A DNA stretch of 64,000 bases from Patescibacteria group bacterium. Its GTDB lineage: Bacteria; Patescibacteriota; Patescibacteriia; XYB2-FULL-38-15. Positions 25,843-60,212 of this stretch are shown in pieces (positions within the stretch are counted from its first letter, which is position 1; each line of letters opens with the position of its first letter). Made by a program: the position numbers and the translations under genes. The notes beneath the pieces were generated by a model. The model was given only the letters and a program-made list of their open reading frames with translations. It searched no databases and was not told the origin of the DNA. The DNA lies in assembly GCA_041737355.1 (NCBI GenBank), contig JBGSRW010000006.1, forward strand, positions 3,246 through 67,245, written 5' to 3'.

Positions 25843-25868
25843 ACCGACTGGCTTGGCCAATCGGCGTG
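25843..25868 (-). terminator. terminator at the left edge of the GC-rich island
   Basis: Hairpin ccgactggc/gccaatcgg followed by a T-run on the minus strand. Confidence 0.5.
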
Positions 25869-25879
25869 TGTCTCCCCTC

Positions 25880-26074
25880 CTAATGTACTGCCTTCTTCTT
25901 ACCTTGCCGCTCAGCCCGGGCCCTGCGGATGGTGTCAATTGCCACCCAGCCCAGAAAACAGAGCGGAACGACGGTAGCGACCGCAACACCAGGCGTCTCG
26001 GAGAGCGCCAGACCGATTGTGGCGGCGACTCCGCCAAGAAAGAACAAGCTGATCAGAATGGCCAAGACCTTCAT
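25880..26074 (-). CDS. small 2-TM membrane protein with a basic C-terminal tail (GC-rich island)
   Basis: 64 aa, two hydrophobic helices, and an AAGAGAGGG SD. Confidence 0.5.
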   Translation of the reverse strand: MKVLAILISLFFLGGVAATIGLALSETPGVAVATVVPLCFLGWVAIDTIRRARAERQGKKKAVH

Positions 26075-26085
26075 TCTGCCCTCTC

Positions 26086-26385
26086 TTACTCCGCAGCTTC
26101 CGCGCGGTCATTTTCCGCCTTGATCGCTGCCAGTTCTTGTTTAAATTCATCGAGCCAACGCTTGGCCTTGAAGCTCGCCTTCACGAGCAAAATCAGCCAC
26201 GCACCAACAAAAGCGATTGGAAGGGTGATGACCAAAAATAACCACCAGCCCATTCCCCCGACGATGAAATCCCAACCGGCGATCCCAACGCACGCCCAGA
26301 TAAGCGCGGCCAGAATAAGCGCGAGCCACGGCGGGAAAAGCATGCCAATGTTCAGCTCGAGATCCTCTTTCTCGTTATCCATCAT
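26086..26385 (-). CDS. small 2-TM membrane protein with an amphipathic charged C-terminus (GC-rich island)
   Basis: Start chosen at ATGATGG behind GGAGGGG (the ORF track extends to 26451). Confidence 0.5.
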   Translation of the reverse strand: MMDNEKEDLELNIGMLFPPWLALILAALIWACVGIAGWDFIVGGMGWWLFLVITLPIAFVGAWLILLVKASFKAKRWLDEFKQELAAIKAENDRAEAAE

Positions 26386-26436
26386 CCCCTCCTTCTGTCT
26401 AAACCTTACCAAAAAATTACAAAAAGTCAACGTCTC

Positions 26437-26465
26437 TTGACGAAAAGGCATAAAAGTAATAATCT
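26437..26465 (+). promoter_or_regulatory. sigma70-like promoter TTGACG-N17-TAATCT for the 399-aa gene, overlapping a short inverted repeat
   Basis: Read directly from the sequence. Inverted repeat: GTCAACGTCTCTTGAC. Confidence 0.5.
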
Positions 26466-26534
26466 AAAAAATACTGTATCTGAAGATAGCTACTCGGGAT
26501 TTGGCAGGTATGGGGGCAAAAAGGAGGGAGTTCT

Positions 26535-27734
26535 TTGAAAAAGCAGATCGTTACGGCTTATGGTAAAACTTCTCTTGATGTAAGGCAGCTTCCCGGGGCG
26601 AACATCTTCGTCTCGCTGGAAAAAGCCATTTTCCCGACGGAAAAGAAAAAGCCCGGAGAAAAACAGCAAAGGGCGGAAATCCCGGCGGGAGCCATTCTCC
26701 TGCCCCATTGGAGCGGTTCCGGTTTCAACGCCCAGCGAGGTTACGTTGTCTACGCAAACGGCCTGTACGAGGCCCTGCGGGCGACAACGCACATCTTCTT
26801 CGGCTACGGAACTCGCGGCAACAAAGGAGAACTCCAGACGCTCGAAACGATGTCGAGACAACTAATCGACATCGTTTCCGTTCTGACTGCTGGCAAGGAA
26901 GCCGGGAGCAACCGGCTAACGGCGGTCCAGACCGAACTTGCGGTTATGGCCGAAGAAATGGCCGCGGTCCTGAACCAGACAAAACGCGAGGCCAGGGACA
27001 AAATCGACGCCTCTAAGGCGCTCGAAGTTTCCCATCCTTCCGGAAAGATGGTTCAAAATCTTCCGGCCAACGCGGTACGTCTTGCGGCCGCCCAACGGCG
27101 CATCGAACGGCGCCAAGACGAGGTGCGGAGAATCGCCGCCCGGCTCGTTTCTTGGGAACAGGTTCTGGCCTCAGAAATCGGCCGGACGTGGGATGCCCTG
27201 AATTGGTTTCGCAAGATGATCGACTCCGAAACGAAGCGCCTCTCGGGCCGATGGACGGACAGGGAGAGGGATGTTTTCCTCAACCGCGCCGGCTGGGCCA
27301 AGGCGCATCTTCTCCCGAGCATCGATGCCGAACCTTTCGTCAAAACCGCGCGCCTCATCCGGCGCGATCTTGGCCAGGCCATGTCTGCCGCTGGCGAGCA
27401 GGAGAAGGATAAGGTGGCCGTGGCGCTGAACCGCATCCTCGCCTCGCTCCGCTTCAAGGACGCTCAGCGAGCCTTTGAAGAAAAAATCCTTCTGCCTTTT
27501 TCCGTCCGACAGGAACTCGGTATTTTGACGCAAAACGACATGAGGCATTTTCGGGGCTGCACCGAAAACTTCCGGGAACGCCTGACCGTTTTGTCGGACC
27601 AGGGTTTCGCGAGTCCGCGCAAAGAGGAAATCATCATCCGCCTGAAACTCGCCGTGATCGAAATTGACCGGCTTGGCGTTGACGGTGCCGAGATCGTAAA
27701 AGACGCGCTGAAACGCGCTTCTCATCTGCTTTAG
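26535..27734 (+). CDS. hypothetical 399-aa GC-rich orphan protein
   Basis: TTG start 6 nt after AAGGAGGGAG; about 58% GC; terminator downstream. No motif recognised. Confidence 0.6.
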   Translation: MKKQIVTAYGKTSLDVRQLPGANIFVSLEKAIFPTEKKKPGEKQQRAEIPAGAILLPHWSGSGFNAQRGYVVYANGLYEALRATTHIFFGYGTRGNKGELQTLETMSRQLIDIVSVLTAGKEAGSNRLTAVQTELAVMAEEMAAVLNQTKREARDKIDASKALEVSHPSGKMVQNLPANAVRLAAAQRRIERRQDEVRRIAARLVSWEQVLASEIGRTWDALNWFRKMIDSETKRLSGRWTDRERDVFLNRAGWAKAHLLPSIDAEPFVKTARLIRRDLGQAMSAAGEQEKDKVAVALNRILASLRFKDAQRAFEEKILLPFSVRQELGILTQNDMRHFRGCTENFRERLTVLSDQGFASPRKEEIIIRLKLAVIEIDRLGVDGAEIVKDALKRASHLL

Positions 27735-27744
27735 CCAAAAATAC

Positions 27745-27830
27745 GCAGCACCCTAAAAAGTGCTGTTTTTTTATAAAAAAAGACCCAACTATGCTTGGTT
27801 GGGTCGAGAAACGTTAACACCTTACCCGCT
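27745..27830. terminator. pair of convergent terminators (cagcac...gtgctg-T7 on the + strand; gacccaacc...ggttgggtc-T7 on the minus strand)
   Basis: Two hairpins, each with a T-run in its own orientation. Confidence 0.7.
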
Positions 27831-27834
27831 CTTT

Positions 27835-28827
27835 CTAGAGCGGTGTCCTCACTCCTCCGAAAGGATCGTCTTCCCAGAGGAGATAATACAGCAGAGCTGT
27901 CCTCATCCACATGCCATTCCGTTCCTGACGCCAGATTTTGATGCGAGGGTCACGGTCGCAGGCCGGCTCAAGCTCTCCCCGCCTCGGCAGAGGATGCATG
28001 ACAATCGAGTGCGGCCTGAGAATCTTAAGATGTCGCTCCTGAAAAAAGAAGGGGGTAGCCCCTTTCTCTTTGTCAAAATCATCCTGGACGCGAGTCATAT
28101 AGACCGCGTCAGATACCGCCACGGCTGCCTCAAGATCTTCCGTTTCCTCAAACAGGATATTGTGCTTGCCGAGGAAATCCTTGATGTCTCCCTCCATACG
28201 ATAGGCTGGGGGAGAAACAAAGATAAGACGAACACCGGGGTAGTGCTTCATGAAGTAAGCGAGAGACCGGACTGTCCGGCCACGCTTCAGGTCCCCGGCC
28301 ATGGCAATAGTCTTGCCTTCAATCCCGCCCAACTCACGAAACTCACGATGCAATGTGTAAATGTCAAGCAGAGCTTGTGTCGGGTGCTGATCCTGGCCTG
28401 AACCGCCATTCACAATATGAGCCGCATGCCATGATTGGCGCACCCTCTCCCGGTCGAAGTACTCAGCTGCTTCCTTGGCAAGACCAGCATGAGGCGAACG
28501 CATAATGATGACGTCCGCATAAGACGCAAAAGTCGCCAGAGAATCAAGAGGCGTCTCGCCCTTAACTTCCGACGAAGTATTCGCGTCACGAATCTCAACA
28601 CAGTCCATCCCCAAATTCTGACAGGCAGACATAAACGAAACAAATGTCCGCGTCGAAACTTGGGTGAAGTACAGCGCTGCCCGCCTGTTTGGGAAAAGCT
28701 TCTTCAGTCGCAAAGCGCCGTCAGTTGTCTGAAATGCCTCCCTGATCTTCGTGGTCAGATTGCAAAGGTAGTCGAGTATTTCGCGGTCAAATTGCTGAGA
28801 TTCAAGAACATGGTAGAGACGCTTCAT
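27835..28827 (-). CDS. pyrB: aspartate carbamoyltransferase catalytic-chain-like transcarbamylase
   Basis: STRTFVSF (carbamoyl-phosphate loop, variant of STRTR), HPTQ, GDLKRGRTVRSL, TRVQ and HPLPR motifs. Start at MKRLYH behind GGAGGA. Confidence 0.7.
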   Translation of the reverse strand: MKRLYHVLESQQFDREILDYLCNLTTKIREAFQTTDGALRLKKLFPNRRAALYFTQVSTRTFVSFMSACQNLGMDCVEIRDANTSSEVKGETPLDSLATFASYADVIIMRSPHAGLAKEAAEYFDRERVRQSWHAAHIVNGGSGQDQHPTQALLDIYTLHREFRELGGIEGKTIAMAGDLKRGRTVRSLAYFMKHYPGVRLIFVSPPAYRMEGDIKDFLGKHNILFEETEDLEAAVAVSDAVYMTRVQDDFDKEKGATPFFFQERHLKILRPHSIVMHPLPRRGELEPACDRDPRIKIWRQERNGMWMRTALLYYLLWEDDPFGGVRTPL

Positions 28828-28867
28828 CGCCCGTCCTCCTTTCCTCCCCTTGCTCGGGTGCAAAAAA

Positions 28868-28900
28868 ACGGCGGAGGATTCCTCCACCGCCGCTTCGTGT
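28868..28900 (-). terminator. terminator after recO at the right edge of the island
   Basis: Minus-strand hairpin cggcggtggagg/cctccgccg followed by ttttttt. Confidence 0.55.
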
Positions 28901-28922
28901 CAACGTTCTAAAAAGAAGAATA

Positions 28923-29684
28923 TCAAAGTTTCAAAACCCGTGTCAAATAATTTATCCACAAGCCGCTTTTCGGTTCACGGTCGCTGTGGACCGCTAAAAA
29001 GCAATCAATGATCGCGGCTGTTTCCTTAAGCTGTTTTTTACTAATTTTAATTGCCGGAAAATATCCCGAATCTTTTTTCAAAACAAAGCGTAAAATTTTT
29101 ATTCCCGCCGCAGAAATGGGAATCCCCTCTCTGCCGCATTTTTTGCAAAATAATCCGCCACGTGCTGCATCGAAAAAATTCCCCTCCGGAACTATTTTAT
29201 TTTTGCATTTTAGGCAACTGTAAAGTTCCGGTTCCCATCCCAGAATGGACATCAATTTTATAATAAAAAATTTTGATAAAGCATAATTATTCAAAAATTT
29301 TTTTTCTTCCGAACCGTTCAAGATATTTAAAAATTCCCCGATCAACGCATAAATTTTATAATCCGGATGTCCGGGTTTGGTAAAATTGTCGACCGCTTCG
29401 AGACAAAAGCTTCCGAGCACCGTCTTCGCCAGATCTTTTCGGATATTAATAAATTTTTTTCTCTGATCGGCTCCGGCAATCTGGTAGTATGTTTTCCCAG
29501 GCGCGACCATAAGGTCGATCTCGGAAAATAGATCAAGATGCCCGGCCATTTTACTTTTTATTTTTCTTACTCCTTTGGCAATCGCCTCTATTTTTCCGAA
29601 CTCATCGGTATAAATTATAAAAAGACGATCGTTTTCACGATAGTCATTTTTTTTCAAAATTATTCCTCTGGCTTGGCGGGTCAT
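28923..29684 (-). CDS. recO: DNA repair protein RecO
   Basis: N-terminal OB fold (GIILKKNDYRENDRLFIIYT) and C-terminal zinc motif CLKC...CKKC. Confidence 0.85.
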   Translation of the reverse strand: MTRQARGIILKKNDYRENDRLFIIYTDEFGKIEAIAKGVRKIKSKMAGHLDLFSEIDLMVAPGKTYYQIAGADQRKKFINIRKDLAKTVLGSFCLEAVDNFTKPGHPDYKIYALIGEFLNILNGSEEKKFLNNYALSKFFIIKLMSILGWEPELYSCLKCKNKIVPEGNFFDAARGGLFCKKCGREGIPISAAGIKILRFVLKKDSGYFPAIKISKKQLKETAAIIDCFLAVHSDREPKSGLWINYLTRVLKL

Positions 29685-30073
29685 TATTTTCTGTCTAGGT
29701 AACTTTGCAAAATTATCATGGCCGCTACGGCATCGCGCTCCTTCACTCCGGAGTCCGCCATCAAATTATCGACCATGGAACTAGAAAATCTTTCGTCTTC
29801 GGTTTCTACCGCTGCCGATAAATTCTTTTTCAAAAAATCAACAAAGAGTAAAACTTCTTCCGCCTGAGGACCTCTTTCTCCGGACAAGGTCAGGGGCAGA
29901 CCGACTACGATTGTCCCGACATCTTCTTCAAGACAAATTTCTTTCAATCCCCCCAAAACGAAATCTTTATTTTTGTTTTCCAAAATCCCGACGGGTGAAG
30001 CTATTTTTGTTTCATCGTCCCCGATTGCCATACCTATTCTTTTTTCCCCGTAATCGATACCTAATAATTTCAT
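29684..30073 (-). CDS. ruvX: Holliday-junction resolvase-like RuvX/YqgF
   Basis: MKLLGIDYGEKRIGMAIGD. Confidence 0.85.
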   Translation of the reverse strand: MKLLGIDYGEKRIGMAIGDDETKIASPVGILENKNKDFVLGGLKEICLEEDVGTIVVGLPLTLSGERGPQAEEVLLFVDFLKKNLSAAVETEDERFSSSMVDNLMADSGVKERDAVAAMIILQSYLDRK

Positions 30074-30858
30074 AATTTAGTCAAAATTTCATGCCCGTTT
30101 CCGGTAACCAGCACGGTATGCTCAAACTGAGCCGACAAGCTTCCGTCAACCGTCGCAACTGTCCATCCGTCATCCAGGGTTTCAACTTCCGAACTTCCGG
30201 CGCAAATCATCGGCTCAAGACAAATTGTCATACCCTCGACGAGCTCAACTTGTTTTTCATAACGGTCAAAAAAATTCGGAACCTTCGGAGGTTCATGGAC
30301 TTTTTTACCTACGCCGTGTCCGACTAAATCCCGTACGACCGAAAAACCCCTGCTTTCGGCGTATCCCTGGATAGCCCGTCCAATATCGCTTACCAAATTC
30401 CCCGATTTAACCTGGGCGATTCCGGCAAGAAGTGCCTCTGCCGTTACCCTGATTAATTTATCCGCCTCGGGATTTATTTTCCCCACCCCAACGGTGATCG
30501 CCGCATCGGTAAAAAGTCCCTCGGGCCCGGCCGGATACTTCAAACCCAAATCCAAACAAATAATATCTCCTTCATTCAAAACTCTCGACGGTATGGCCGG
30601 CGCGTGAACAACTTCGTCGTTTACCGAAGTGCAAAGGGTTGTTGGGAAAGGCGTGTCTCTCGGATCTGGCCGATAATTTTTAAACGCCGGAACAGCGCCA
30701 TTCTCTTCGATCAATTTTTCCGCTAAAGCGTTAAGCGCCCCGGTAGTAATCCCCGGCCTTACGGCTTTTTTTAATTCATCCAAAACGAACGCCAAAATTC
30801 TTCCGCTTTGGCGCATTATTTTTATTTCTTCGCTTGTTTTTATAATAACTTTTTCCAT
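30070..30858 (-). CDS. map: methionine aminopeptidase type I
   Basis: MetAP fold motifs (ICLDLG, HGVGKKVHEPP, ICLEPM). The likely start is MEKVIIK. Confidence 0.88.
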   Translation of the reverse strand: MEKVIIKTSEEIKIMRQSGRILAFVLDELKKAVRPGITTGALNALAEKLIEENGAVPAFKNYRPDPRDTPFPTTLCTSVNDEVVHAPAIPSRVLNEGDIICLDLGLKYPAGPEGLFTDAAITVGVGKINPEADKLIRVTAEALLAGIAQVKSGNLVSDIGRAIQGYAESRGFSVVRDLVGHGVGKKVHEPPKVPNFFDRYEKQVELVEGMTICLEPMICAGSSEVETLDDGWTVATVDGSLSAQFEHTVLVTGNGHEILTKL

Positions 30859-30862
30859 AACT

Positions 30863-31510
30863 CTATTTTTTCCCCTCCAGCTGCGCAATAATCTTATTGA
30901 AAACTTTTTCTATCGGAGGCCTGGCGTCTATTTTAATCAATTTTTTTTCTTTTGCATATTTACTCAAAATTGGCTCAGTTTGCCCATGGTATATTCCAAG
31001 TCTTTTTTTTATCGACTCCGGGCGATCATCGCTCCGGACAGCCAGTTTCGTCCCGCAGTTATTACATGCTCCGTCTTCCTTCGGGGGCTTATTTTCCAAA
31101 TGATAAATCGCCCCGCACTTTGGACAAATTCTTCTTCCGCCGAGTCTTTTAAGTACGGTTTTATCGTCAATATCCAGTTGGATGATTATATCTAACCCGA
31201 AATTTTTTTCTAAAAAATCCAGCTGATTGAGGTTGCGGGGATATCCATCCAAAATAAAACCCTTTGAATATTTATTTTGTTTCAATTCATCGAAAATCAC
31301 CCTGTTGGTCACAACGTCCGGAACAAGCCTTCCTTTTTCGATAAATTTTTTAGCGAGGTTGCCGAGATCGGAGCCCTCTCTTATTTCTTTACGAAAAAAA
31401 TCCCCCGTCGCCAAAATATTAAATTTATATTTTTTAGCCAGCATCTCCGTCTGAGTCCCTTTGCCCGAACCCTGTGGCCCGAATAAAACTATTTTTCTTA
31501 TTCCCCGCAT
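30863..31510 (-). CDS. adk: adenylate kinase (with a zinc-lid cysteines)
   Basis: P-loop GPQGSGKGTQ and lid CPKCG...CNNCG. Confidence 0.9.
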   Translation of the reverse strand: MRGIRKIVLFGPQGSGKGTQTEMLAKKYKFNILATGDFFRKEIREGSDLGNLAKKFIEKGRLVPDVVTNRVIFDELKQNKYSKGFILDGYPRNLNQLDFLEKNFGLDIIIQLDIDDKTVLKRLGGRRICPKCGAIYHLENKPPKEDGACNNCGTKLAVRSDDRPESIKKRLGIYHGQTEPILSKYAKEKKLIKIDARPPIEKVFNKIIAQLEGKK

Positions 31511-31544
31511 AAATTGATAAATCCCACGCAACTGATGTGTGGGA

Positions 31545-31826: not shown

Positions 31827-31848
31827 ATCTTGTATTTTAAATTATAAA

Positions 31849-33120: not shown

Positions 33121-33182
33121 ATGTTTAATAAATTAATTAGCGAATTAGTCAATTCTCTAATCCGCAATCCGCTAATTATTCT

Positions 33183-33626: not shown

Positions 33627-33655
33627 AATTTTAATTTATTTTTTACCAAGATTCT

Positions 33656-34153: not shown

Positions 34154-34171
34154 ATTATTTATCCAAAAAAA

Positions 34172-42844: not shown

Positions 42845-44035
42845 TTATTTTATAATTTTTGTCACAACTCCGGCACCAACGGTTTTACCGCCTTCACGGA
42901 TAGCGAATTTCATCTTCTCTTCGAGAGCAACCGGAACGATCAATTTAATCTTCAAATTAACCGTATCGCCAGGCATAACCATTTCGGTGCCCGCGGGCAA
43001 TTCTACTTCACCGGTAACGTCTGTAGTTCTGATATAAAACTGCGGTTTGTAGCCCTTGAAAAAAGGTTTATGGCGTCCGCCCTCTTCCTTGGTCAAAGCG
43101 ATGATTTCCGCTTCGAACTCGGTATGCGGATTAACCGAACCCGGTTTAGCCAAAACCTGTCCGCGTTCGACATCCTCTTTCTTTGTACCGCGAAGCAAAA
43201 TACCGGCATTATCACCAGCCCGGCCTTCGTCCAAAGATTTATTGAACATTTCAATGCCGGTCACGACAGTTTTTTGCGTATCGCGCATACCGACAATTTC
43301 CATTTCGTCGTTCAATTTAACTATGCCTCTCTCAATTCTTCCGGTTACAACCGTACCGCGACCTTCGATTGAGAATATGTCTTCAATCGGCATCAAGAAC
43401 GGCTGATCCGTAGCGCGCTGCGGTTCGGGAATATATTCATCCAAAGTTTTAACTAATTCCATGATCGGCTTTGAGGCTTCCTCGTCTCCCGGATTCTGGA
43501 CAGCCTTCAGGGCTGAACCTCTGATAATCGGAGTCGTATCACCAGGAAAATTATATTTTTTAAGCAAATCTCTAACTTCTTCCTCGACCAAATCGATAAG
43601 CTCCTTGTCTTCAACCATGTCGCATTTGTTCAAAAAAACAACGATGTAAGGAACACCTACTTGGCGAGCTAAAAGAATATGCTCTCTGGTTTGAGGCATC
43701 GGACCGTCGGTCGCTGAAACAACCAAAATAGACCCGTCCATCTGGGCTGCGCCCGTAATCATGTTTTTAATATAATCGGCGTGGCCGGGGCAGTCGACGT
43801 GGGCATAGTGTCTTTTTTCCGTCTCATACTCAACGTGAGCGGTAGCAATAGTAATGCCTCTGGCTTTTTCTTCCGGGGCGGAGTCGATCTGGTCAACATT
43901 TTTGTCGGAAGCTTTCATGCCGTGCGCCCGAAGAACCGCCAAAATAGCTGCGGTTAAAGTTGTTTTGCCATGGTCAACGTGGCCGATTGTTCCCACGTTA
44001 ACATGGGGTTTTGCTCTTTCGAATTTTTCTGCCAT
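42845..44035 (-). CDS. tuf: elongation factor Tu
   Basis: [21 protein letters not shown]. Confidence 0.95.
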
Positions 44036-48639: not shown

Positions 48640-48720
48640 TAAACTCCGCCTTTTCGGCGGAGTTTTGATTTATAAAAATAAAAAAGCGGGATGTGACGTT
48701 TAATCGCATTCCCGCTTGAA
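48640..48720. terminator. two hairpin terminators (ctccgcc-ttttc-ggcggag for rpmB on the + strand; gcgggaatg...catcccgc for the GC-rich minus-strand gene)
   Basis: Hairpins with appropriate T-runs. Confidence 0.6.
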
Positions 48721-48730
48721 CGTAGGCGGA

Positions 48731-49315
48731 TTACTTCTTCTTGTGCAAGACAAGCCAGGCGATGAGACCGGAATGGAACAACCCCTCGATTGGGTGCAGC
48801 CTCACCACGCGCAGAGGGTTGTGGCAATCCCAGTAGCCGTTTCTCCCAAAGACCGGGACGACTGATTGTTCGGAGCGGCGCCATTCCGTGGGAAGGACGA
48901 GCGAACAGCGGGTCTGGATATCGGGATTTTTGGAGATGAACTGCATGCCCCGACGCGGGCCGCACCTTCGATATCCCTCATTATTCAGCCGGCGAACAAT
49001 CTCGTCTCCATGGAGACCGAGAGCCAAATTTGCAAAACTATACTGATGAACTTCCCAGTCGTCTTCGTCCGGCGCGATTGGCTCCAGAGGAAAACGCGAT
49101 TCGTTGAAATCGGCGTCGATTTCGTCCTGCCGGCAAGCGTCAAAAAGTCTTTGCCAGGCTGAAGGAACCATCTCGCTAATGAGCGCACGCCGAAGTCCGT
49201 CGGCCAGATCCTGCGGCCGATGAAGCCAGTGCTGAACCCGCTCAGACGAAAGATCGCGTGGCAAAGCGCGGAGCACTGCCTGCTCAAACTCCTCCCCTCG
49301 AGATTCTTCACTCAT
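48731..49315 (-). CDS. hypothetical 194-aa GC-rich orphan protein
   Basis: About 55% GC; own promoter TTGACA-N16-TAAAAT at 49338-49365; an AGGGAG SD. Contains a weak Rx4H motif (RVVRLH). Confidence 0.55.
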   Translation of the reverse strand: MSEESRGEEFEQAVLRALPRDLSSERVQHWLHRPQDLADGLRRALISEMVPSAWQRLFDACRQDEIDADFNESRFPLEPIAPDEDDWEVHQYSFANLALGLHGDEIVRRLNNEGYRRCGPRRGMQFISKNPDIQTRCSLVLPTEWRRSEQSVVPVFGRNGYWDCHNPLRVVRLHPIEGLFHSGLIAWLVLHKKK

Positions 49316-49371: not shown

Positions 49372-49397
49372 AAACCCCGCCAAACGGCGGGGTTTTC
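49372..49397 (-). terminator. terminator after eno
   Basis: aaaccccgcc-aaac-ggcggggttt followed by a T-run on the minus strand. Confidence 0.65.
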
Positions 49398-52176: not shown

Positions 52177-52205
52177 AATTATTTTAATTCCTATCGCGGC
52201 CTTAG

Positions 52206-52276
52206 TCGGGGTGCCGGGAATTGAACCCGGATCACACCCACCCCAAGGGTGCGTCCTGCCGTTAGACTACACCCCG
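52206..52276 (-). tRNA. tRNA-Pro (anticodon GGG); CCA not encoded
   Basis: RC reads CGGGGTG-TA-GTCTAACGGCAGGAC-G-CACCC-TTGGGGT-GGGTG-TGAT-CCGGG-TTCAATT-CCCGG-CACCCCG-A. Confidence 0.7.
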
Positions 52277-52487
52277 ACCAAAGCCACGATTGAATTCTTT
52301 CAGTATAAAGGAATTACAAATAACCCGCAATCATCCTTCTCTATCGGCGCTCGCTCGGAAATGAAATTAAAATTTCATTTCTCTCGCTCGCTTGATAATA
52401 AAAAAGCGGGCCAAACGCAACTGCGTCAGGCCCACAATCTCTTTTTTCGCGCGTTCCTCCTTAAGCGCGAAAGTGTTCGGCCACAAG

Positions 52488-52802
52488 CTAGCAGCCGTGG
52501 CCAGTCACCTTTCCCCAGCCGGAAACTTCTTCGTTGGTAAGTGGTGGCGAGTTGCTCACTTTCCCCTCAGAGCCTGCCTCAGGCTCTGCGCGTTTGGTTG
52601 TCTCGCTCTCGCCAGCCGACGTAGGGGGGATACCAAGAAAATTCATATCGTGCCCAATCGGCTCGGCAAAGATTCTGCCGAGAAGATCAACCTCTTCGTC
52701 TTTCGTCATCTCGTGCTTGCCAAGTTTTCTCTCTCTCGCTTCCCGCCGTAGACGGTCCGCCCGCAGTTCAATAGGCCGCTTTTCTTTCCCTATCCCGCTC
52801 AT
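52488..52802 (-). CDS. hypothetical 104-aa GC-rich orphan protein
   Basis: AAGGAGGAG SD 4 nt before the ATG; about 55% GC. Confidence 0.5.
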   Translation of the reverse strand: MSGIGKEKRPIELRADRLRREARERKLGKHEMTKDEEVDLLGRIFAEPIGHDMNFLGIPPTSAGESETTKRAEPEAGSEGKVSNSPPLTNEEVSGWGKVTGHGC

Positions 52803-52867
52803 TCTCTCCTCCTTTTGTTAAAACCTCAAATTCGACGGCTAGGGAAAAAATCCTTTCCTCAGCCGTC

Positions 52868-52900
52868 GAACCAAAAACCGCTCCGATTTTCGTCGGAGCG
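52868..52900. terminator. bidirectional terminator ccgctccga-ttttc-gtcggagcgg
   Basis: Perfect hairpin with flanking A/T runs. Confidence 0.65.
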
Positions 52901-53030
52901 GTTTTAATCAATTTATTTTAGACTAAAAACCTTTCCGACGATTCGGAGTAAAAAAGAAAAAAGTAAAATATTTCCAAACGGCTGTGTTCATACTTTTTTA
53001 TTTTACCGCTAATCAAAATTTGGCCAGTAA

Positions 53031-53636: not shown

Positions 53637-53719
53637 AAATAAAAACTATTTTAATGAATAATTAGGCTATCATAACAAAAGATATAAAAAAAACAATACT
53701 GCCGATGTTTATCCCCTCC

Positions 53720-54592
53720 TCATTTATTTTTTACCTCTATTTTTGTTCCATCGCTTATAATTTTAATATCTCCGTTTTTATCGGTCCTCAATATTTTCAC
53801 ACCCGCCTTGGTGAGTCTCTCCAATGTGAGCTCGCTCGGATGGCCAAAAGTGTTTTTTTTCCCGACCGAAATAACGGCAATCTCCGGTTTAACTTTTTCC
53901 AAAAAATTCTGGCTGGTGGAGTATTTGCTGCCGTGGTGCGCGACTTTGAGAACATTCGCCGCCAAATTGTCTGACTTTATCAATTGTTTTTCTTCCTCGT
54001 TTTCCGCATCACCGGTAAAGAAAAAAGAAGTTTCGCCAAAATCCAACCTAAAAACGATGGAAGTATTGTTCAGAGAATCAGCTTTCTTACCGGTTAAATC
54101 ATCCGCGGGAGAAAGTATTTCTAGTTTAATTTTTTCTCCGAGATTTATCTTTTGTCCCGCCCTTGCAATATCCATCGGAATTTTTTGTTTCTTAATTTCT
54201 TCAAGCCATTTTATATACTCTGAAGTCGTGTGTAGAACGCCCGTTGATAAAACTTTTTTTACTTTGTATCTTTTTAAAACTTCGATTAACCCGGTCAGGT
54301 GATCGGCGTGCGGATGGGTCAAAATAACAAGGTCAATATTTTTGTCGTAAAATGGCAGATTCTCCCCGAGCTTTGTCACGACTTTGTTATCTGGACCGCC
54401 GTCAACCAGAATTCTTTGATGTTCCGGCGTCTTAATCAGAATTGAATCACCCTGTCCAACATCGAAAAAATCAATCTCAAGACCCTTGCTCTCTCCGGAA
54501 AATTGAAAAAAGGAAATACCAGCCAAAACCAAAAGGGCGGAAAAAAATCCAATGAGCCGGACGGTCAATTTTTTATATTTTGATTCAAGCAT
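53720..54592 (-). CDS. ComEC/Rec2-related metallo-beta-lactamase domain protein (equivalent to the C-terminal part of ComEC)
   Basis: N-terminal TM, then MBL motifs (DVGQGDS, THPHADH, HHGS). Confidence 0.8.
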   Translation of the reverse strand: MLESKYKKLTVRLIGFFSALLVLAGISFFQFSGESKGLEIDFFDVGQGDSILIKTPEHQRILVDGGPDNKVVTKLGENLPFYDKNIDLVILTHPHADHLTGLIEVLKRYKVKKVLSTGVLHTTSEYIKWLEEIKKQKIPMDIARAGQKINLGEKIKLEILSPADDLTGKKADSLNNTSIVFRLDFGETSFFFTGDAENEEEKQLIKSDNLAANVLKVAHHGSKYSTSQNFLEKVKPEIAVISVGKKNTFGHPSELTLERLTKAGVKILRTDKNGDIKIISDGTKIEVKNK

Positions 54593-54613
54593 TAGTTTTT
54601 AAATTATTGCTTT

Positions 54614-56077
54614 TCATTTTTTCCCCTGTCGCCAGACGAACCATGCGATTATTAAATATGTCACAACGACGACGATCCAATGTATCTGGCCGAGATTGAA
54701 AGCGGCAAAAGGAATTTCCGCCAAAATCTCCGCCGCCTTTATTATATAACTTAGGGAAAACCATGCCAACCAAGCCAGAACCTGGCCCAACCCGGTATAA
54801 ATCAGCCCGCCCAGCACGGCAATAAAACCGAGCGCCATTGTCAGGGGAATTACCGGCAAAATCAAAAGATTAGCTATTGGCGCGATAAAAGAGATTCTGC
54901 CAAAATTGTATAAAATCAGAGGCAAGGTCATGACGATTGCTGATAGAGTTGTGGTAAGCGATTCTTTTATACCAAAAAACGACGGTGCCTTGGCTAAATA
55001 TTTTTCCAAAATCGGCGAAAGAAAAACGAGGCCAACGGTGGCGGCAAAAGACAATTGAAATCCCACGTCAAATGCCAAAATTTTCGGATTTAAAAATAGC
55101 ATGGCCGCGGCGGTGAGCATTAGCGCATTTGTTATTTTACTTACCCGCCCGACTTGGGAGGCAAGAAGAACCAGGCAGCCCATTATGGCGGCCCGTACTA
55201 CCGAAGCGGAAGCGCCGGTTAAAATAACGAAAAAAATTATCCCGGAAAGAGCAACCCAGAAAGATTTTTTTCTGGCGAGGCCGAGCCCTTTCGCAAGCTT
55301 CATCAAGAGAGCTGCCAAAATTGTGATGTTGTATCCGGAAATGGCGATGATATGCGTCGTGCCGGTGATATTAAATTTTTCCATCAAATCCTGCGGGATG
55401 CCGCGCCGCGCACCGTAAAGTAAGCCGCCAAGAAACGCCGCCTGCGGTTCCGGCAAAATCCGGTTAACCGTAAAAACTAATTTTTCTTTAACCAATAGAA
55501 TTCCGATCACGATCCAATTACCCTCCCCGCCGCCCAGCAACTTAATTTCCGGCCAATAACAAAGTGAGTAAATATTTTCCTTGGCCAGATATTTGTCGTA
55601 AGCGAATTCTTCAATCGGTTCGGGTTTTTTAAGCTCGCATTTTATTTCGAGTTTGTCACCGTATTTATAATCGGGATAGAGTTTGGCGTTCACTAAAACT
55701 TTTCCGCTAATATTTTTCCGCCCGCCGCCGGTTACCAGCCCAGAACTTTCCACTATCAATTTCACGCCGCTATCTCTCGTATCCGGTTCTGCGGCTACAA
55801 CCCCGACAAAAGTTTGCTCCCACCCATTGTAGAAGCTGATTTGATTTTCGTTTTGCGGAACGATACTGGCCTCATAACGTAAAATCCCAAAAAATAAAAA
55901 AACTCCTCCCAGTCCGGCAACAATAAAAATTTTCTTAGGCCAGCCGAAAAACAAAAAACCGCATCCGGCTAAAAATACTCCGAACGCGGCCCAAAGCGGC
56001 AGTGGCAAATATGAAGCTATTCCCACGCCTAAGATAAAAAATAAACAGGAATAGAAAAATATTTTGGACTTTGTCAT
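54614..56077 (-). CDS. comEC: ComEC/Rec2 competence channel domain protein (DUF4131 plus competence domain)
   Basis: Multi-TM protein with a ComEC-like topology. It is separated from the MBL ORF by a single in-frame TAA. Confidence 0.75.
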   Translation of the reverse strand: MTKSKIFFYSCLFFILGVGIASYLPLPLWAAFGVFLAGCGFLFFGWPKKIFIVAGLGGVFLFFGILRYEASIVPQNENQISFYNGWEQTFVGVVAAEPDTRDSGVKLIVESSGLVTGGGRKNISGKVLVNAKLYPDYKYGDKLEIKCELKKPEPIEEFAYDKYLAKENIYSLCYWPEIKLLGGGEGNWIVIGILLVKEKLVFTVNRILPEPQAAFLGGLLYGARRGIPQDLMEKFNITGTTHIIAISGYNITILAALLMKLAKGLGLARKKSFWVALSGIIFFVILTGASASVVRAAIMGCLVLLASQVGRVSKITNALMLTAAAMLFLNPKILAFDVGFQLSFAATVGLVFLSPILEKYLAKAPSFFGIKESLTTTLSAIVMTLPLILYNFGRISFIAPIANLLILPVIPLTMALGFIAVLGGLIYTGLGQVLAWLAWFSLSYIIKAAEILAEIPFAAFNLGQIHWIVVVVTYLIIAWFVWRQGKK

Positions 56078-58488
56078 TAAACCACAATATTGACGAGCTT
56101 ACCTTTAACAAAAATAATTTTTTTGATTTCCTTGCCCTCAATCCACTTTTTAACCTTCTCGCTCCCGATCGCAAATTTTTTCGCATCATCCTCGCCGATA
56201 TCCGCCCTTGCCTTTACCGTATCACGTACTTTTCCGTTTATTTGAATAACTAAATCTATTTCTTCTTCTACTACCAACTTGGAATCATGCTCCGGCCATT
56301 TTTCAAGATGAATACTTTTTTTCCCACCAGCTTTTTCCCAAAGCTCTTCAACCAAATGCGGGGCAAAAGGCGCTAATATTCTCAAAAATAATTTCCAAAC
56401 ATCCGGAGAAATTTTTTCTTCACCGCTCATAGCGTTCATTAAAATCATCATCTGGGAAACAGCCGTATTGAATTTCATTGCTTCGATATCTTCTCCGACT
56501 TTCTTGACCGTTTGGTGCAATATTTTTTCAATTTCTCTGTTTGCGTTTTTCCCGCTTACCTTTTCCTGCAGCCGCCAAACTCTCTCCAAAAATCTGTAAA
56601 CTCCGACCACTCCCTTTTCATCCCAGGGAATGGCCTGATCAAACGGCCCCATGAACATTTCGTAAATCCGCAAAGTATCGGCGCCGAAACGGGTTACTAC
56701 GTCATCGGGATTGACGACATTTCCGCGCGATTTTGACATTTTTTCTCCGCCCTCGCCCAAAATCAAACCGTGCGAAGTTCTTTTTTTGTACGGTTCATCG
56801 CCGCACTCTTTGGGAATAACGCCGATATCATATAAAAATTTATACCAAAAACGCGAATACAAAAGATGAAGAGTGGTATGCTCCATTCCCCCATTGTACC
56901 AATCAACCGGCATCCAATATTTTAAATTCTTGCCGTTGGCAAATTCTTTTTTATTTTTCGGATCGGTGTAGCGCATGAAATACCAGGACGATCCGGCCCA
57001 ATTTGGCATGGTGTCCGTCTCACGCCGCGCCGTGCCATTACACTTCGGGCATTTTGTCTTGACCCATTTTTCCATTGCCGCAAGCGGCGACTCGCCTGTC
57101 TCGGTCGGCTCATATTTTTTAACTTTCGGCAACTCAACCGGCAAGTCTTTTTCCGGCACCGGCACCCAGCCGCATTTTTCACAATAGATAAGCGGAATCG
57201 GCTCGCCCCAATATCTTTGCCTAGAAAAAACCCAGTCGCGCAATTTATAATTCACGGCTTTTTTGCCAATCTTTTTTTCCAGAAGCCACGCTGTCATTTT
57301 TTCAATCGCTTCGCTTGGCTTCAGACCGTTTAAAAATTCTGAATTGACCATTATCCCCTTATCAATTTCGGTAAAAGCTCCCTTACTAATGTCACCACCA
57401 CTGATCACTTCTCGAATTAGCAAATCAAATTTTTTAGCGAAAGCAAAATCCCGTTCGTCGTGGGCCGGGACAGCCATAATCGCGCCAGTGCCATAACCGG
57501 TCAAAACATAATCGGCCACCCAAATGGGAATCTCCTCATTATTCACCGGATTAATTGCCTTGATACCCCCCAACTCCACGCCAGTTTTTTCTTTTTGTAA
57601 TTCCGTCCGTTCCAAATCAGACTTTCTTTTTGCTTTGGCAATATATTTTTCCACTTCGACCCAATTAGAAATTTTTGATTTTAATTTTTCCACCATCTCG
57701 TGTTCCGGCGCCAAAACCATGTAAGTAGCGCCAAACAAAGTATCCGGTCTTGTTGTAAACACCTTAATCTTTAATTCTGAATTCTTAATTCCAAATTCCA
57801 CCTCCGTGCCTTCCGATTTTCCAATCCAATTTACCTGCTGATCCTTTATCCGCGGGGCGTAATCAACTTTTTCCAAACCCTCGAGCAGCCGCTCGGCGTA
57901 TTTGGTAATTTTTATCATCCACTGCTCTTTCGTCTTTTTTTCCACTATGCCACCACAGCGCTCGCAAACGCCGTTCACCACTTCTTCATTCGCCAGACCG
58001 ATTTTGCATTTTGTACACCAGTTGATAGCGATTTTATCTTTGTAGGCCAGGCCGTGTTTGAAAAATTGTAGAAACATCCATTGCGTCCATTTGTAATATT
58101 CGGGATCGGTTGTATTTATCTCCCGCGACCAATCGAAAGAAAGGCCAAGCGATTTCAACTGCCTAGTAAAATTTTTAATATTTTTGGCAGTGGCAATTGC
58201 CGGCTGAATCCCGGTTTTTATGGCGTAATTTTCCGCGGGTAAACCAAAAGCGTCCCAACCGATTGGGTACAAAACATTTTTCCCCTGCATCCGATGTTTT
58301 CGGGCAACGATGTCCAGAGCCGTATAACTTCGCGGGTGGCCGACGTGCAGCCCTTCGCCGGACGGATAGGGGAACTCAATCAGGCAATAAAACTTCTCCT
58401 TTTTGGAATTTTCTTTAACTTCGTAAATTTTCCCTTTTTCCCATTTTGCCTGCCACTTCTTCTCAATTTTCTTGAAATTATAATCCAT
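56077..58488 (-). CDS. leuS: leucyl-tRNA synthetase
   Basis: HIGH (HVGHPRSY) and KMSKS motifs, plus the CP1 editing domain. Confidence 0.95.
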   Translation of the reverse strand: MDYNFKKIEKKWQAKWEKGKIYEVKENSKKEKFYCLIEFPYPSGEGLHVGHPRSYTALDIVARKHRMQGKNVLYPIGWDAFGLPAENYAIKTGIQPAIATAKNIKNFTRQLKSLGLSFDWSREINTTDPEYYKWTQWMFLQFFKHGLAYKDKIAINWCTKCKIGLANEEVVNGVCERCGGIVEKKTKEQWMIKITKYAERLLEGLEKVDYAPRIKDQQVNWIGKSEGTEVEFGIKNSELKIKVFTTRPDTLFGATYMVLAPEHEMVEKLKSKISNWVEVEKYIAKAKRKSDLERTELQKEKTGVELGGIKAINPVNNEEIPIWVADYVLTGYGTGAIMAVPAHDERDFAFAKKFDLLIREVISGGDISKGAFTEIDKGIMVNSEFLNGLKPSEAIEKMTAWLLEKKIGKKAVNYKLRDWVFSRQRYWGEPIPLIYCEKCGWVPVPEKDLPVELPKVKKYEPTETGESPLAAMEKWVKTKCPKCNGTARRETDTMPNWAGSSWYFMRYTDPKNKKEFANGKNLKYWMPVDWYNGGMEHTTLHLLYSRFWYKFLYDIGVIPKECGDEPYKKRTSHGLILGEGGEKMSKSRGNVVNPDDVVTRFGADTLRIYEMFMGPFDQAIPWDEKGVVGVYRFLERVWRLQEKVSGKNANREIEKILHQTVKKVGEDIEAMKFNTAVSQMMILMNAMSGEEKISPDVWKLFLRILAPFAPHLVEELWEKAGGKKSIHLEKWPEHDSKLVVEEEIDLVIQINGKVRDTVKARADIGEDDAKKFAIGSEKVKKWIEGKEIKKIIFVKGKLVNIVV

Positions 58489-58578
58489 ATTATTAATATC
58501 TTAACATAAACGTCCTAATAAAAAAAGCTCCGCGGTTGGCCTTTAAACCATGCACACGGAGCATGTCTCTCTCCAAAA

Positions 58579-59571
58579 CTAACCCGAGAGCCGGACCGAC
58601 GGAACGAGCCGGCGGTACCTTGCCCGAAGCTTACCGTTCAGTGCGGCATTCCGGGGAAGGCCTCGGACCAAGAGTTCGATTCTCCCGCTTACAACGTGGC
58701 TTCTTACCTGGAGCACTTCGTTGGAGCCCTCTCTTTCGTTGTAGGCAGTCCGGAGACAGACCGGTTCGTCCTGATCGAGGATGTCGCAGGAGATCTCCTT
58801 CATGACTACCCAGGCAAGCAGATACTCCTCAAGCGAGAGCACCTCCCAACCAGCGGGCGCCTGCCGCTCGAATTCGCTGAAGTTCTTACCATGCCGCGGC
58901 GCGCTTCCGCCGATCTCCGCCCAGAACCAGTAGCCTTCGCTTGTGGGAGAGAAGGCAATCCAGCTCCTGTCTCCCTCCCGCAGGGTCGAATGGCCTCCGA
59001 GGCCGATGGCCTCCATCAGTCGGCCGTAGGAAACCTTGACCTCTGGCGGCCGGTAGATCAGCTGTTTGTTTTCCCCGCAGCCGGTCTCGAATTCCTCGGC
59101 CGTAATCGCCGCCCTGGGTACCTCGATACCGTTGAAGTCGTAGAGGCGGAAGAGATTCTCCGCGGTCTGCCGCCAGTTTTCCACGGGGTCATCAGTTGCC
59201 GCAGAGGGCGGAACCGACGGACATATCCGCCTGGCCACCGTAGCCGTTTTGGGACGAACATCTTCCGACTCGCCCACGAACTGTGCCGCCGCAAGCTGGA
59301 TATCGAGCTCCGCTACACGCGTGCGGAGAAGCTCGAGTTCCTCGCGCTCTTCCGGCTTGAGCTCCGGACAGACGAGCCTCGTCGATTCGGAATCGGAGGT
59401 GTTGCCCTCCAGAGCCGCTTCGATTGCCAACTTGAAACCGCGAAGCGCGATCTCCGCCGTCATTTCCTTACGTTCAACCAAGTCGCAAAGACGCTGCCAC
59501 CTGCCGGCCATCCGCTCCATAAGAGCGAGATCGGCAAGAAGCTTGTCGATTCTCTTCGGGTCTCTTTCCAT
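58579..59571 (-). CDS. hypothetical 330-aa GC-rich orphan protein
   Basis: GGAGGAGGAAGG SD; a TTGACA promoter at about 59640-59674; about 58% GC. Confidence 0.55.
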   Translation of the reverse strand: MERDPKRIDKLLADLALMERMAGRWQRLCDLVERKEMTAEIALRGFKLAIEAALEGNTSDSESTRLVCPELKPEEREELELLRTRVAELDIQLAAAQFVGESEDVRPKTATVARRICPSVPPSAATDDPVENWRQTAENLFRLYDFNGIEVPRAAITAEEFETGCGENKQLIYRPPEVKVSYGRLMEAIGLGGHSTLREGDRSWIAFSPTSEGYWFWAEIGGSAPRHGKNFSEFERQAPAGWEVLSLEEYLLAWVVMKEISCDILDQDEPVCLRTAYNEREGSNEVLQVRSHVVSGRIELLVRGLPRNAALNGKLRARYRRLVPSVRLSG

Positions 59572-59720
59572 CTGCCTTCCTCCTCCCCCGCTCTCGGAGG
59601 TTTTTATTATATTTGACGATCATCCACAAATTTGGAGATCTCATTATCTAAATACTTTTTTTCAATTTTGTCAACCCTGATAAAATAAAAAGGGCTGGCT
59701 TGATCCAACCCTCCGCCTCC

Positions 59721-60158
59721 TTACTTTCTTTCGATCTGCTTCCGGCCGGAAGCCCTTGCCCAGCTGCCGCTCGAGATCTCCCCGCCGACCGCGTTGCCGG
59801 CCTTTTTCCTCGGCAAAATCTTTTTCCTAATATACCCCAGGCAATGCTCACTCATTTCGCGCTCAAATTCCTGCCGTCGGGCGGGAAAATTTCTCCACTC
59901 GGCAATGACTCTATCGCATGGCCAACAGAGCTTGTCCGTATTGTACATTGCAAGAGTCGCTCCGCAGCATTCGCATCTCCGTCTACCCGGAATAGTTGGA
60001 AGCGACTGAACGGTCTCGGAGATTTTGTCCTCGCCGTCCGTCTCAGTAAGAGACGCTGTTTCGGGCAAATTTTTCTCCGATGAAACGGGCTCGACGGACG
60101 TCTCGACCGTCTTCGGCTTTTTGGAAAACCCTTCTTTGTCTTTTATTTTTCTCGACAT
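59721..60158 (-). CDS. hypothetical GC-rich protein with a CxxC...CxxC zinc ribbon
   Basis: Start at MSRKIK behind GGAGGAG. Motif CECCGATLAMYNTDKLCWPC. Confidence 0.5.
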   Translation of the reverse strand: MSRKIKDKEGFSKKPKTVETSVEPVSSEKNLPETASLTETDGEDKISETVQSLPTIPGRRRCECCGATLAMYNTDKLCWPCDRVIAEWRNFPARRQEFEREMSEHCLGYIRKKILPRKKAGNAVGGEISSGSWARASGRKQIERK

Positions 60159-60212
60159 TTTCTCTCCTCCGTCTAACTTTAATGATTCTGCCCGAAAAGT
60201 CAATTCAACAAA

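Follow-up and report, generated by a model that had tools for sequence, protein, structure and literature searches.

GC-rich, Shine-Dalgarno-led genes at fixed chromosomal sites of a candidate-phyla-radiation bacterium: probably old foreign genes inherited within a clade

How do small GC-rich genes, most of them preceded by a strong Shine-Dalgarno (SD) sequence, come to lie between the core genes of an AT-rich bacterial chromosome that hardly uses such sequences? The question is raised by a 64,000-nucleotide (nt) stretch of a Patescibacteria group bacterium (assembly GCA_041737355.1, contig JBGSRW010000006.1, positions 3,246 to 67,245), referred to here as the window, in which eight GC-rich genes, termed cassette genes below, occupy four intergenic sites: asnS/recO, eno/rpmB, ndk/tRNA-Pro and gdhA/leuS. 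An earlier note on this DNA had proposed either repeated independent acquisition from a high-GC, SD-using donor or a deliberate or artefactual insertion. Our analysis leads to a different answer: these are probably old foreign genes that sit in fixed, variable slots, have been inherited within the clade, are ameliorating and, at gdhA/leuS, have been swapped between lineages.

The compositional contrast was found where the earlier note had placed it. Sliding GC content reaches 0.55-0.63 at 25.85-28.9, 48.7-49.3, 52.4-52.8 and 58.5-60.1 kb, compared to a window mean of 0.45. As a native reference we used a curated list of 67 genes in the window (GC 0.439 ± 0.030; GC at third codon positions, GC3, 0.462 ± 0.046). 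The eight cassette genes have a GC content of 0.525-0.605 (z 2.8-5.5) and a GC3 of 0.576-0.719 (z 2.5-5.6; Mann-Whitney p = 4e-6), and their codon adaptation index to the native set is low (z -1.8 to -4.5). The use of lysine and arginine is inverted, with 5.3% Lys and 9.3% Arg in the cassette proteins and 10.2% Lys and 5.1% Arg in the native ones. Per-gene codon usage, one of the checks suggested in that note, thus does separate the cassette genes from the core genes. The GC1/GC2/GC3 pattern typical of coding DNA was observed in all eight, and this, together with protein-level homology, an excess of synonymous differences and the lack of any Rfam family, led us to reject a structured non-coding RNA; at both gathering score and relaxed threshold, Rfam returned tRNAs and chance terminator-like matches and nothing credible in the cassettes.

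A similar contrast was obtained for translation signals. An SD sequence of at least 5 nt precedes six of the eight cassette genes and two of the 67 native genes (dprA and tuf; Fisher p = 3.7e-6), and at a threshold of at least 4 nt all eight cassette genes are SD-led. The contrast drawn in the earlier note stands. Native leaders are 78% A+T. The native exceptions are tuf (42845-44035), dprA (2450-3643) and, just outside the window, hup (200-475 of contig L001). Predicted mRNA folding at the start codon did not differ between cassette and native genes (p = 0.13), and there is therefore no evidence that the SD sites compensate for structure. That SD sequences are kept before the cassette genes across very divergent alleles, and also at tuf, dprA and hup, argues that the anti-SD may still be in use in this lineage.

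Core chromosomal genes run along the whole window (GC 44.9%): der, pth, dprA, topA, relA/spoT, parAB, scpAB, lon, aspS/asnS, recO, a ribosomal-protein cluster, tuf, fusA, rpsGL, rpmB, eno, ndk, comEC, leuS, gdhA, trxAB and infB. We verified the genes flanking the cassettes (rpmB, eno, ndk, tRNA-Pro, leuS, gdhA, asnS and recO) by Pfam and ARAGORN, in agreement with the earlier claim that the inserts lie between conserved core genes. In GTDB (one genome per species) the closest relatives of the leucyl-tRNA synthetase (LeuRS) are from Parcubacteria/Paceibacteria metagenome-assembled genomes, at an identity of only 60-65%, which marks the organism as a candidate-phyla-radiation (CPR) bacterium of the Parcubacteria/Paceibacteria type without a close sequenced representative. 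Since the GTDB representatives offered no close relative (best LeuRS 65%), synteny was taken from metagenome contigs, labelled with an L and a number, of Logan, ENA/MEGAHIT and JGI assemblies. A metagenome scan with NDK returned the syntenic relatives L091, L096, L100, L098, L094, L095, L101 and L092 (NDK 81-90% identical). Ordinary variation in gene content also occurs in this neighborhood: a gene for a 334-amino-acid (aa) HD-domain protein, native-like in GC, is located between DUF4230 and eno in L091 (14086-15093), L098 (3595-4599) and L100 (13140-14144) and is missing from the window and L096.

To what extent are the cassettes peculiar to this genome? When syntenic loci were compared, three of the four sites (asnS/recO, ndk/tRNA-Pro and gdhA/leuS) were found to hold positional, GC-rich, SD-led homologues in relatives, and only the 194-aa gene at eno/rpmB is unique. 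The situation that the earlier note had named as speaking against its own reading, that relatives carry the inserts at the same loci, is thus what we found at three sites, and repeated independent acquisition in this genome is contradicted there. The notion of a deliberate or artefactual insertion fared no better. Logan contigs of run SRR28170473, the same sample put together by a second assembler, show the same DNA with the same neighbors around the GC-rich genes, and homologous cassette architecture was observed in more than 10 independent metagenome assemblies, from many unrelated samples and several assemblers (Logan, ENA/MEGAHIT, JGI). This recurrence across samples excludes chimeras and engineering: the GC-rich genes are real and natural. 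Our attempt to gauge how widely such islands occur in other CPR lineages, by a generic scan for GC islands at +0.10 over the local median, was too noisy to be of use.

On the other hand, the proposal of a high-GC, SD-using donor gained support. Composition, codon usage and the Arg/Lys ratio are consistent with it, and so is the direction of recent change. We polarized substitutions between the window and L085, with L086 and L083 as outgroups for the 330-aa gene at gdhA/leuS and L091 for its zinc-ribbon neighbor. GC->AT changes exceeded AT->GC changes by 26 to 9 in the 330-aa gene (binomial p = 0.006) and by 28 to 9 in the zinc-ribbon gene. As a native control we compared five genes (ndk, eno, gdhA, comEC and an MBL-fold gene) between the window and L091, with L096 and L100 as outgroups, and obtained 197 GC->AT and 302 AT->GC changes (contrast with the cassettes, Fisher p = 6.8e-5). 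GC is thus being lost from the cassettes and not from the resident genome. The native AT->GC excess in the window and L091 lineages fits their slightly higher GC content, 0.45 compared to 0.42 in L096 and L100.

Homologues at the two ends of this process were also found. L088 carries a distant, 402-aa homologue of the 399-aa gene of asnS/recO with 45.5% GC in a contig of 42% GC, and it has kept the AAGGAGG and the TTG start. At the other end, L084, a contig of 73% GC, carries a gene of the 330-aa family with a GC3 of 0.93 that is 53-56% identical to the L086 and L083 alleles, and L171, a contig of 64% GC, has another member. The recognizable cargo of the slots (aspartate carbamoyltransferase (ATCase)-like, PurF-like, RNase J-like and DUF5701 proteins) belongs to ordinary bacterial families. 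Taken together, the substitution bias, L088 and the GC-rich contigs favor an import from GC-rich bacteria followed by slow amelioration.

At the gdhA/leuS slot the two cassette genes lie on the minus strand. The upstream one (59721-60158; GC 0.525, SD GGAGG) encodes a zinc-ribbon protein of 145 aa, corrected from 146 aa, with a CxCC...CxxC motif and a basic tail. It was found at gdhA/leuS in every relative examined, at 42-81% identity, with motif and tail kept in all alleles; our guess is that it is a nucleic-acid binder. The second gene (58579-59571; GC 0.605, SD AGGAGG) encodes a protein of 330 aa with a coiled coil at its N-terminus and a domain of an uncharacterized family at its C-terminus. 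The two are separated by an internal spacer (59646-59714, minus strand) that holds a terminator hairpin (59689-59714) and a promoter-like site (59674-59646) and is 95% identical to that of L085. A hairpin and T-run terminator follows the 330-aa gene (58520-58562, minus strand), just upstream of the leuS start at 58488. A search of 5.8 billion proteins gave six relatives of the 330-aa protein. Its C-terminal domain defines a family for which 116 clusters were found among 1.84 billion representatives; 68 members were scanned and none has a Pfam domain, and the AlphaFold2 model of the 330-aa family was unusable (predicted local distance difference test score, pLDDT, 44.6).

Between gdhA and leuS, the zinc-ribbon open reading frame (ORF) and a 330-aa homologue were found in L085 (93% identity) and in L086/L087 (46%), and a zinc-ribbon ORF with a large ORF also in the relatives returned by the NDK scan, among them L091, L096 and L100. 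In L083 the pair (47%) lies upstream of leuS-comEC. In these relatives the pair has a GC content of about 51-62% with GGAGG-type SD sequences while the flanks have 41-46% GC and no SD. Flank fragments of all relatives, which are short for some loci, are 82-89% identical to the window in nucleotide sequence, whereas the cassette proteins range from about 20% to 93% identity.

A distance tree of the large ORFs resolves three deep classes: the window with L085, P0008, L086 and L083; L091 with P0018 and P0019; and L096 with L100. The L084 homologue is nested inside the first. These classes cut across two architectures of the leuS flank. In one (window, L085, L091 and L092), leuS starts directly after the cassette terminator. 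In the other (L083, L086, L096 and L100), the terminator is followed by a 47-nt copy of the leuS promoter and start, a spacer of 110-130 nt and the real leuS start. This copy of promoter and first codons, seen in L083 at 2395-2556 and also in L086, L096 and L100 (compare 58463-58509 in the window), could represent either a footprint of recombination or a leader element of leuS. Compared to L085, the cassette genes are 87-92% and the spacers 92-95% identical in nucleotide sequence, the gdhA end 88% and the leuS end 83%. As the allele classes do not track the flanks, and as cassette and spacers are more conserved than the flanks relative to L085, we read the slot as one where whole cassette alleles have probably passed from lineage to lineage through recombination in the conserved flanks. 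Purifying selection acts on the 330-aa gene, with 55 synonymous and 23 non-synonymous codon differences from L085; the zinc-ribbon gene, with 14 synonymous and 28 non-synonymous, shows none by this count.

Two further observations concern the neighbors of this slot. In L083 a gene fragment with a GC3 of 0.87 (25-684) adjoins the cassette at the place that gdhA takes in other relatives; the contig ends inside this gene, so gdhA could lie further upstream. It scores above the cut-off of the NCBIfam model 'TIGR-Tas system RNA-guided endonuclease' (146.8 bits; cut-off 100), shows weak matches to IS110 transposases, and is probably GC-rich mobile or guide-RNA-system DNA that landed at the same hot spot. 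The LeuRS of several relatives (L091 3862-7458, L096 4215-7490, L083 2557-5610) measures 1017-1198 aa, since its editing domain is followed by an insertion of one or two alpha/beta serine-hydrolase domains (PF06821). The LeuRS of the window (56077-58488, 803 aa) lacks this insert, and that of L100 (902 aa) is about 100 aa longer with no PF06821 match.

The asnS/recO site holds a 3-kb island of four genes, which encode a pair of small membrane proteins, an orphan of 399 aa and a carbamoyltransferase-like protein. Its left edge, beside the start of asnS, is a terminator hairpin at the end of the membrane-protein pair (25843-25865, minus strand). The pair, on the minus strand, consists of a predicted 64-aa membrane protein (25880-26074; GC 0.585, SD GAGG), which forms a singleton cluster, and a predicted 99-aa membrane protein (26086-26385; GC 0.537, SD AGGAG) with a TTGACT-N16-TAAGGT-like site ahead of it. 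The 399-aa orphan follows on the plus strand (26535-27734; GC 0.574) and starts with TTG after AGGAGG. Two back-to-back terminator hairpins (27745-27805) separate it from the convergent carbamoyltransferase-like gene on the minus strand (27835-28824; 329 aa, GC 0.527, SD AGGAGG).

The 399-aa gene is the constant member of this island. Four relatives were found, with 39-59% identical homologues at asnS/recO in L089, where the gene follows asnS, and in L090, where it lies between asnS and recO as in the window. The position on the opposite strand is variable: an ATCase-like gene in the window, an RNase J-like gene in L089 and a DUF5701 gene in L090, all of about 53-60% GC and SD-led. All 399-aa homologues start with TTG after an AAGGAGG-type SD (window 26516-26537; L089 455-499; L090 280-325; L088 1030-1062), and L089 and L090 share their promoter as well as a small hairpin immediately ahead of the SD, in which compensatory changes are seen (ccctaaaacaggg vs ccccgaaatgggg). 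No match to the 399-aa protein was found in Pfam, PDB or PADLOC, and its AlphaFold2 model was poor (pLDDT 57.7), with only noise in a Foldseek search of the PDB. The 329-aa protein carries PF02729 and PF00185 and matches the ATCases of the PDB (E 3e-55), and it falls below the equivalog cut-off of TIGR00670 (219 bits vs 236.95); it is probably a divergent member of the ATCase family. A fifth GC-rich cassette lies beyond the right end of the window, between rny and infB: a purF-like amidophosphoribosyltransferase gene of 448 aa (L001 3205-4551, about 65.0-66.4 kb; GC 0.584, SD AGAAGGAGGG) with its own terminator. Two GC-rich genes, the ATCase-like and the purF-like, are thus nucleotide-biosynthesis enzymes.

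The eno/rpmB slot differs from the others in that its content, a 194-aa orphan on the minus strand (48731-49315; GC 0.564, SD GGAG), is unique to this genome. Among 5.8 billion proteins the search returned a self-match only, and tblastn gave no match in the relatives. The promoter-like site of this gene follows directly after the eno terminator (49372-49395, minus strand); a hairpin and T-run terminator (48680-48729, minus strand) comes after the gene, and then the native bidirectional rpmB terminator (48641-48665). In L096 and L100 the eno-rpmB gap is 119-126 bp, an empty slot, while L098 has a 72-aa GC-rich ORF there and L091 a 233-aa ORF. Residues 53-75 of the orphan (AWQRLFDACRQDEIDADFNESRF) resemble an N-terminal motif of the 330-aa family (RWQRLCDLVERKEMTAEIALRGF; 'WQRL..D......E..A'), a resemblance that is not significant, with an hhalign probability of 1.4% against the profile of that family.

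At ndk/tRNA-Pro the window carries a 104-aa small protein on the minus strand (52488-52802; GC 0.562, SD AGGAGG). A hairpin (52831-52870, minus strand) lies just upstream of its SD, next to the ndk terminator (52874-52905), and a hairpin and T-run terminator (52400-52435, minus strand) follows the gene upstream of tRNA-Pro (52205-52276). In eight relatives this gap is a GC-rich stretch (0.54-0.69 per 100 nt) with one or two SD-led small ORFs, which share with the 104-aa protein the motifs 'GREMTxEE..FL..LF' and 'SW.ERIGYGF/…GHGC'. A profile of the relatives' first ORF (ORF-A) retrieved the 104-aa ORF as the best of 1186 six-frame pieces (E 2.5e-5), and the match between the second ORF and the C-terminal part was weak (E 0.57). 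The 104-aa gene appears to be a fusion of the two small ORFs. Small, SD-led ORFs of high GC content that end in G(H/Y)G(C/F/V) were seen in L098 at eno/rpmB (5935-6200) and in the ndk/tRNA-Pro gaps of L094, L095, L096, L098, L100 and L101, with endings such as ...ERIGYGF, ...MTGHGV and ...TPHGCT in relatives and VTGHGC in the window. The similarity is weak, and these may be a small-peptide family with a conserved C-terminal end.

Are the cassettes transcription units in their own right? The earlier note had described near-consensus promoters for at least three of the genes, and promoter-like sites are indeed present, all on the minus strand: TTGACA-16-TAAAAT (11 of 12 positions; 49365-49338) ahead of the 194-aa gene, TTGACT-16-TAAAGT (60203-60176) directly after the gdhA terminator and ahead of the zinc-ribbon gene, and TTGACA-17-TTAGAT (59674-59646) in the spacer before the 330-aa gene, which fails the -10 rule of our scanner and is kept in relatives. 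No clear promoter was found for the 104-aa gene. The terminator scan returned hairpins at 25843-25865, 27745-27766, 27782-27805, 48641-48665, 49372-49395, 59689-59714 and 60210-60238; the insulation by hairpins attributed to each cassette in that note holds for most of them. The AT-rich internal promoter at gdhA/leuS is recognizably alike in alleles with 47% protein identity, and the conservation of promoter and SD at this distance argues that they are functional. It is plausible that the expression signals of the cassettes have been optimized, as the earlier note supposed.

Signs of mobility were sought as well. No repeat family is common to the cassettes and the window holds no integrase, although no dedicated attC model was run; for these reasons, and because the cassettes have promoter-like sites of their own, we rejected integron gene cassettes as a candidate. 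No relatives of the 330-aa gene were found in IMG/VR contigs, INPHARED phages or PLSDB plasmids, and none of the 399-aa family in IMG/VR contigs. PHROGs gave no significant match for the orphans and matched the ATCase-like gene to a family of unknown function. The orphans likewise returned nothing from Pfam, PADLOC, NCBIfam or PDB sequence profiles.

The explanation that we consider probable would run as follows. The clade's own genes are AT-rich and almost never SD-led. Accessory genes would have come from GC-rich, SD-using bacteria and settled at fixed slots (asnS/recO, eno/rpmB, ndk/tRNA-Pro, gdhA/leuS and also rny/infB). Each gene or pair would be a self-contained unit, transcribed from its own AT-rich promoter of sigma-70 type, translated from a strong SD and closed by a hairpin terminator, which would allow it to be expressed without disturbing its neighbors. 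Most units would have been gained before the relatives diverged and then inherited, evolving much faster than the core genes and still losing GC, with alleles exchanged between lineages by recombination through the conserved flanks, at least at gdhA/leuS. Natural transformation is a plausible route of uptake because comEC and dprA lie in the window. As to the proteins, we would suggest with low confidence that they are lineage-specific host-interaction or regulatory proteins alongside salvaged enzymes of nucleotide metabolism (ATCase-like and PurF-like); our best guess for gdhA/leuS is an interaction or regulatory pair of a zinc-ribbon nucleic-acid binder and a variable partner.

Several points weigh against this explanation. 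We identified no donor genome, and of the eight genes four (the 194-aa, 104-aa, 64-aa and 99-aa genes) lack a homologue outside the clade. The homologue from the 73% GC contig falls within the CPR alleles, so that transfer may have run from CPR bacteria to a GC-rich organism, or have taken place more than once. The parsimony outgroups are divergent (about 50% protein identity) and may over-count changes from common to rare bases, and the native substitution control used a different genome pair. Around the cassettes we found no target-site duplication, terminal inverted repeat or flanking repeat; there is no recombinase among the genes of the window, and only one site, at tRNA-Pro, adjoins a tRNA gene. 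Over the whole region the enrichment of promoter-like sites is mild (27 found, 18.4 ± 3.7 expected), and it is the individual sites that would carry the argument rather than their count. Promoter, terminator and SD function are here sequence predictions, and in a survey the anti-SD motif was undetected in about half of Parcubacteria (PMC9297842).

The rival explanations can be set against the same observations. An assembly chimera or deliberate construct might be suggested by the sharp change of composition at the cassette edges and by the textbook-looking expression signals; since the second assembler gives the same junctions on the same sample, more than 10 other samples show homologous architecture, and the alleles diverge naturally with the 330-aa gene under purifying selection, we regard this as practically negligible. 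Several recent, independent insertions from a single high-GC donor would account for the similar GC content of all cassettes (53-61%) and for the unique 194-aa gene, whose slot is empty in L096 and L100. This is nevertheless improbable, as relatives with flanks of only 82-89% nucleotide identity carry positional homologues at three of the four sites, and as the AT-rich internal promoter is common to alleles of 47% protein identity. About as improbable is the possibility that these are native genes whose GC content and SD are kept by selection, forming an SD-dependent translation class in an otherwise SD-less genome. It would fit the SD and TTG start of the 399-aa gene, kept across 39%-identical homologues including the nearly ameliorated L088, the SD sequences of the native tuf, dprA and hup, and a GC3 of 0.57-0.76 in every relative. 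The GC->AT excess in cassette genes and not in native genes speaks against it, however, as do L088, which shows that GC is not maintained everywhere, the homologues at equilibrium composition in GC-rich genomes, and the native-like predicted folding at start codons.

Another possibility is that the cassettes are remnants of a prophage, plasmid or integron scattered into the chromosome. In its favor, units of odd composition built from promoter, gene and terminator are what phage morons look like, one of the sites borders on a tRNA gene, and the IS110/TIGR-Tas-like GC-rich gene of L083 adjoins a cassette. We find this very improbable, given that the orphans have no significant PHROGs match, that the searches of phage, viral and plasmid collections described above were negative, that neither an integrase nor attC-like or terminal repeats occur in the window, and that the flanks are all core genes. 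It could also be speculated that the GC-rich genes derive from the GC-rich host cell of an episymbiont, keep being exchanged, and serve host interaction as mimics or regulators. Full-length or domain homologues of the 330-aa family do occur in contigs of 73% and 64% GC, the former nested among CPR alleles; the deep, fast-diverging allele classes at one slot are those expected of interaction genes, and comEC and dprA are present. This origin is unlikely rather than implausible: there is no known host, the samples that gave the GC-rich contigs are not those of the CPR contigs, the wider family of 116 clusters spans very different amino-acid compositions, and no secretion signals were noted. The old import from GC-rich bacteria, followed by inheritance and amelioration within the clade, is the explanation we retain.

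These results lift the suspicion of contamination or engineering from this genome. They show how a streamlined CPR symbiont may store foreign genes, in a few fixed slots between core operons, as insulated units, each with a strong ribosome-binding site of a sort hardly used by the organism's own genes. Within this uncultured clade, the slots offer natural markers for gene flow and variation between strains. Among their cargo are uncharacterized families (the domain of about 116 clusters, the 399-aa family, the zinc-ribbon partner and the G(H/Y)G(C/F) peptides) that may mediate host interaction, and the SD-led cassettes beside SD-less native genes provide a natural test of whether SD-dependent initiation works in Parcubacteria. 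A bolder combination of these ideas, which we think rather doubtful, would have cassettes derived from a GC-rich host, repeatedly exchanged between it and the episymbiont, as the only strongly SD-dependent translation class of a lineage that has otherwise given up SD-led initiation, the zinc-ribbon protein and its hypervariable 330-aa partner as an arms-race module of host interaction or immunity, and the G(H/Y)G(C/F)-ended peptides of ndk/tRNA-Pro as a new, strongly expressed signaling or precursor family. General accounts exist of horizontal gene transfer and of genomic islands in Patescibacteria (PMC12455944), and we found no description of this specific architecture in the literature.

How do the cassettes compare to known systems? 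Two of the likenesses concern the source of the genes and their translation. According to the model attributed to Lawrence and Ochman, horizontally acquired genes are said to ameliorate toward the composition of the recipient. The cassettes resemble such genes in their atypical GC, codon and amino-acid usage, in their recipient-biased substitutions and in having an ameliorated relative, L088. Unlike typical ameliorating genes, they are shared by a clade and yet still lie 10-15 GC points above the genome, and their regulatory DNA is recipient-like while their coding DNA is donor-like. With respect to translation, initiation in Bacteroidota is SD-poor, and the native genes of this genome resemble those of SD-poor Parcubacteria and Bacteroidota, with A/T-rich leaders and an SD in two of 67. 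In contrast, a minority here (the cassettes, tuf, dprA and hup) has a strong SD that is kept across divergent alleles.

The other two likenesses concern the arrangement of the genes. Phage morons, reportedly described by Hendrix and Juhala in 2000, are promoter-gene-terminator units of deviant composition between two genes. Like morons, the cassettes have an SD, a predicted terminator and, in most cases, a promoter-like site, and lie between unrelated genes with a composition of their own. Unlike morons, they are flanked by ribosomal, tRNA-synthetase and metabolic core genes with no phage genes, the searched families lack phage homologues, with a PHROGs match for the ATCase-like gene only, and the units are inherited across a bacterial clade. 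Replacement-type flexible genomic islands, or islets, are those in which related strains carry divergent versions of genes at one slot between conserved core genes. Here, too, the slots are fixed between conserved core genes, one of them next to a tRNA gene, their content is divergent or non-homologous in relatives, and the allele classes do not follow the flanks. The cassettes differ from the usual flexible islets in that the units are very small, with one to four genes in a symbiont genome of roughly the 1-Mb class, and in that all are GC-rich and SD-led on an AT-rich, SD-poor background and are not surface-polysaccharide genes. We therefore do not propose a new kind of element. The cassettes are best filed under known phenomena, as horizontally acquired genes in replacement-type flexible islets with a moron-like build, and the best label is clade-conserved, replacement-type genomic islets of moron-like transcription units. 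What is less ordinary is how small and tidy the units are, their persistence in a CPR clade at 10-15 GC points above the genome, and their SD-led genes among residents that are almost SD-free.

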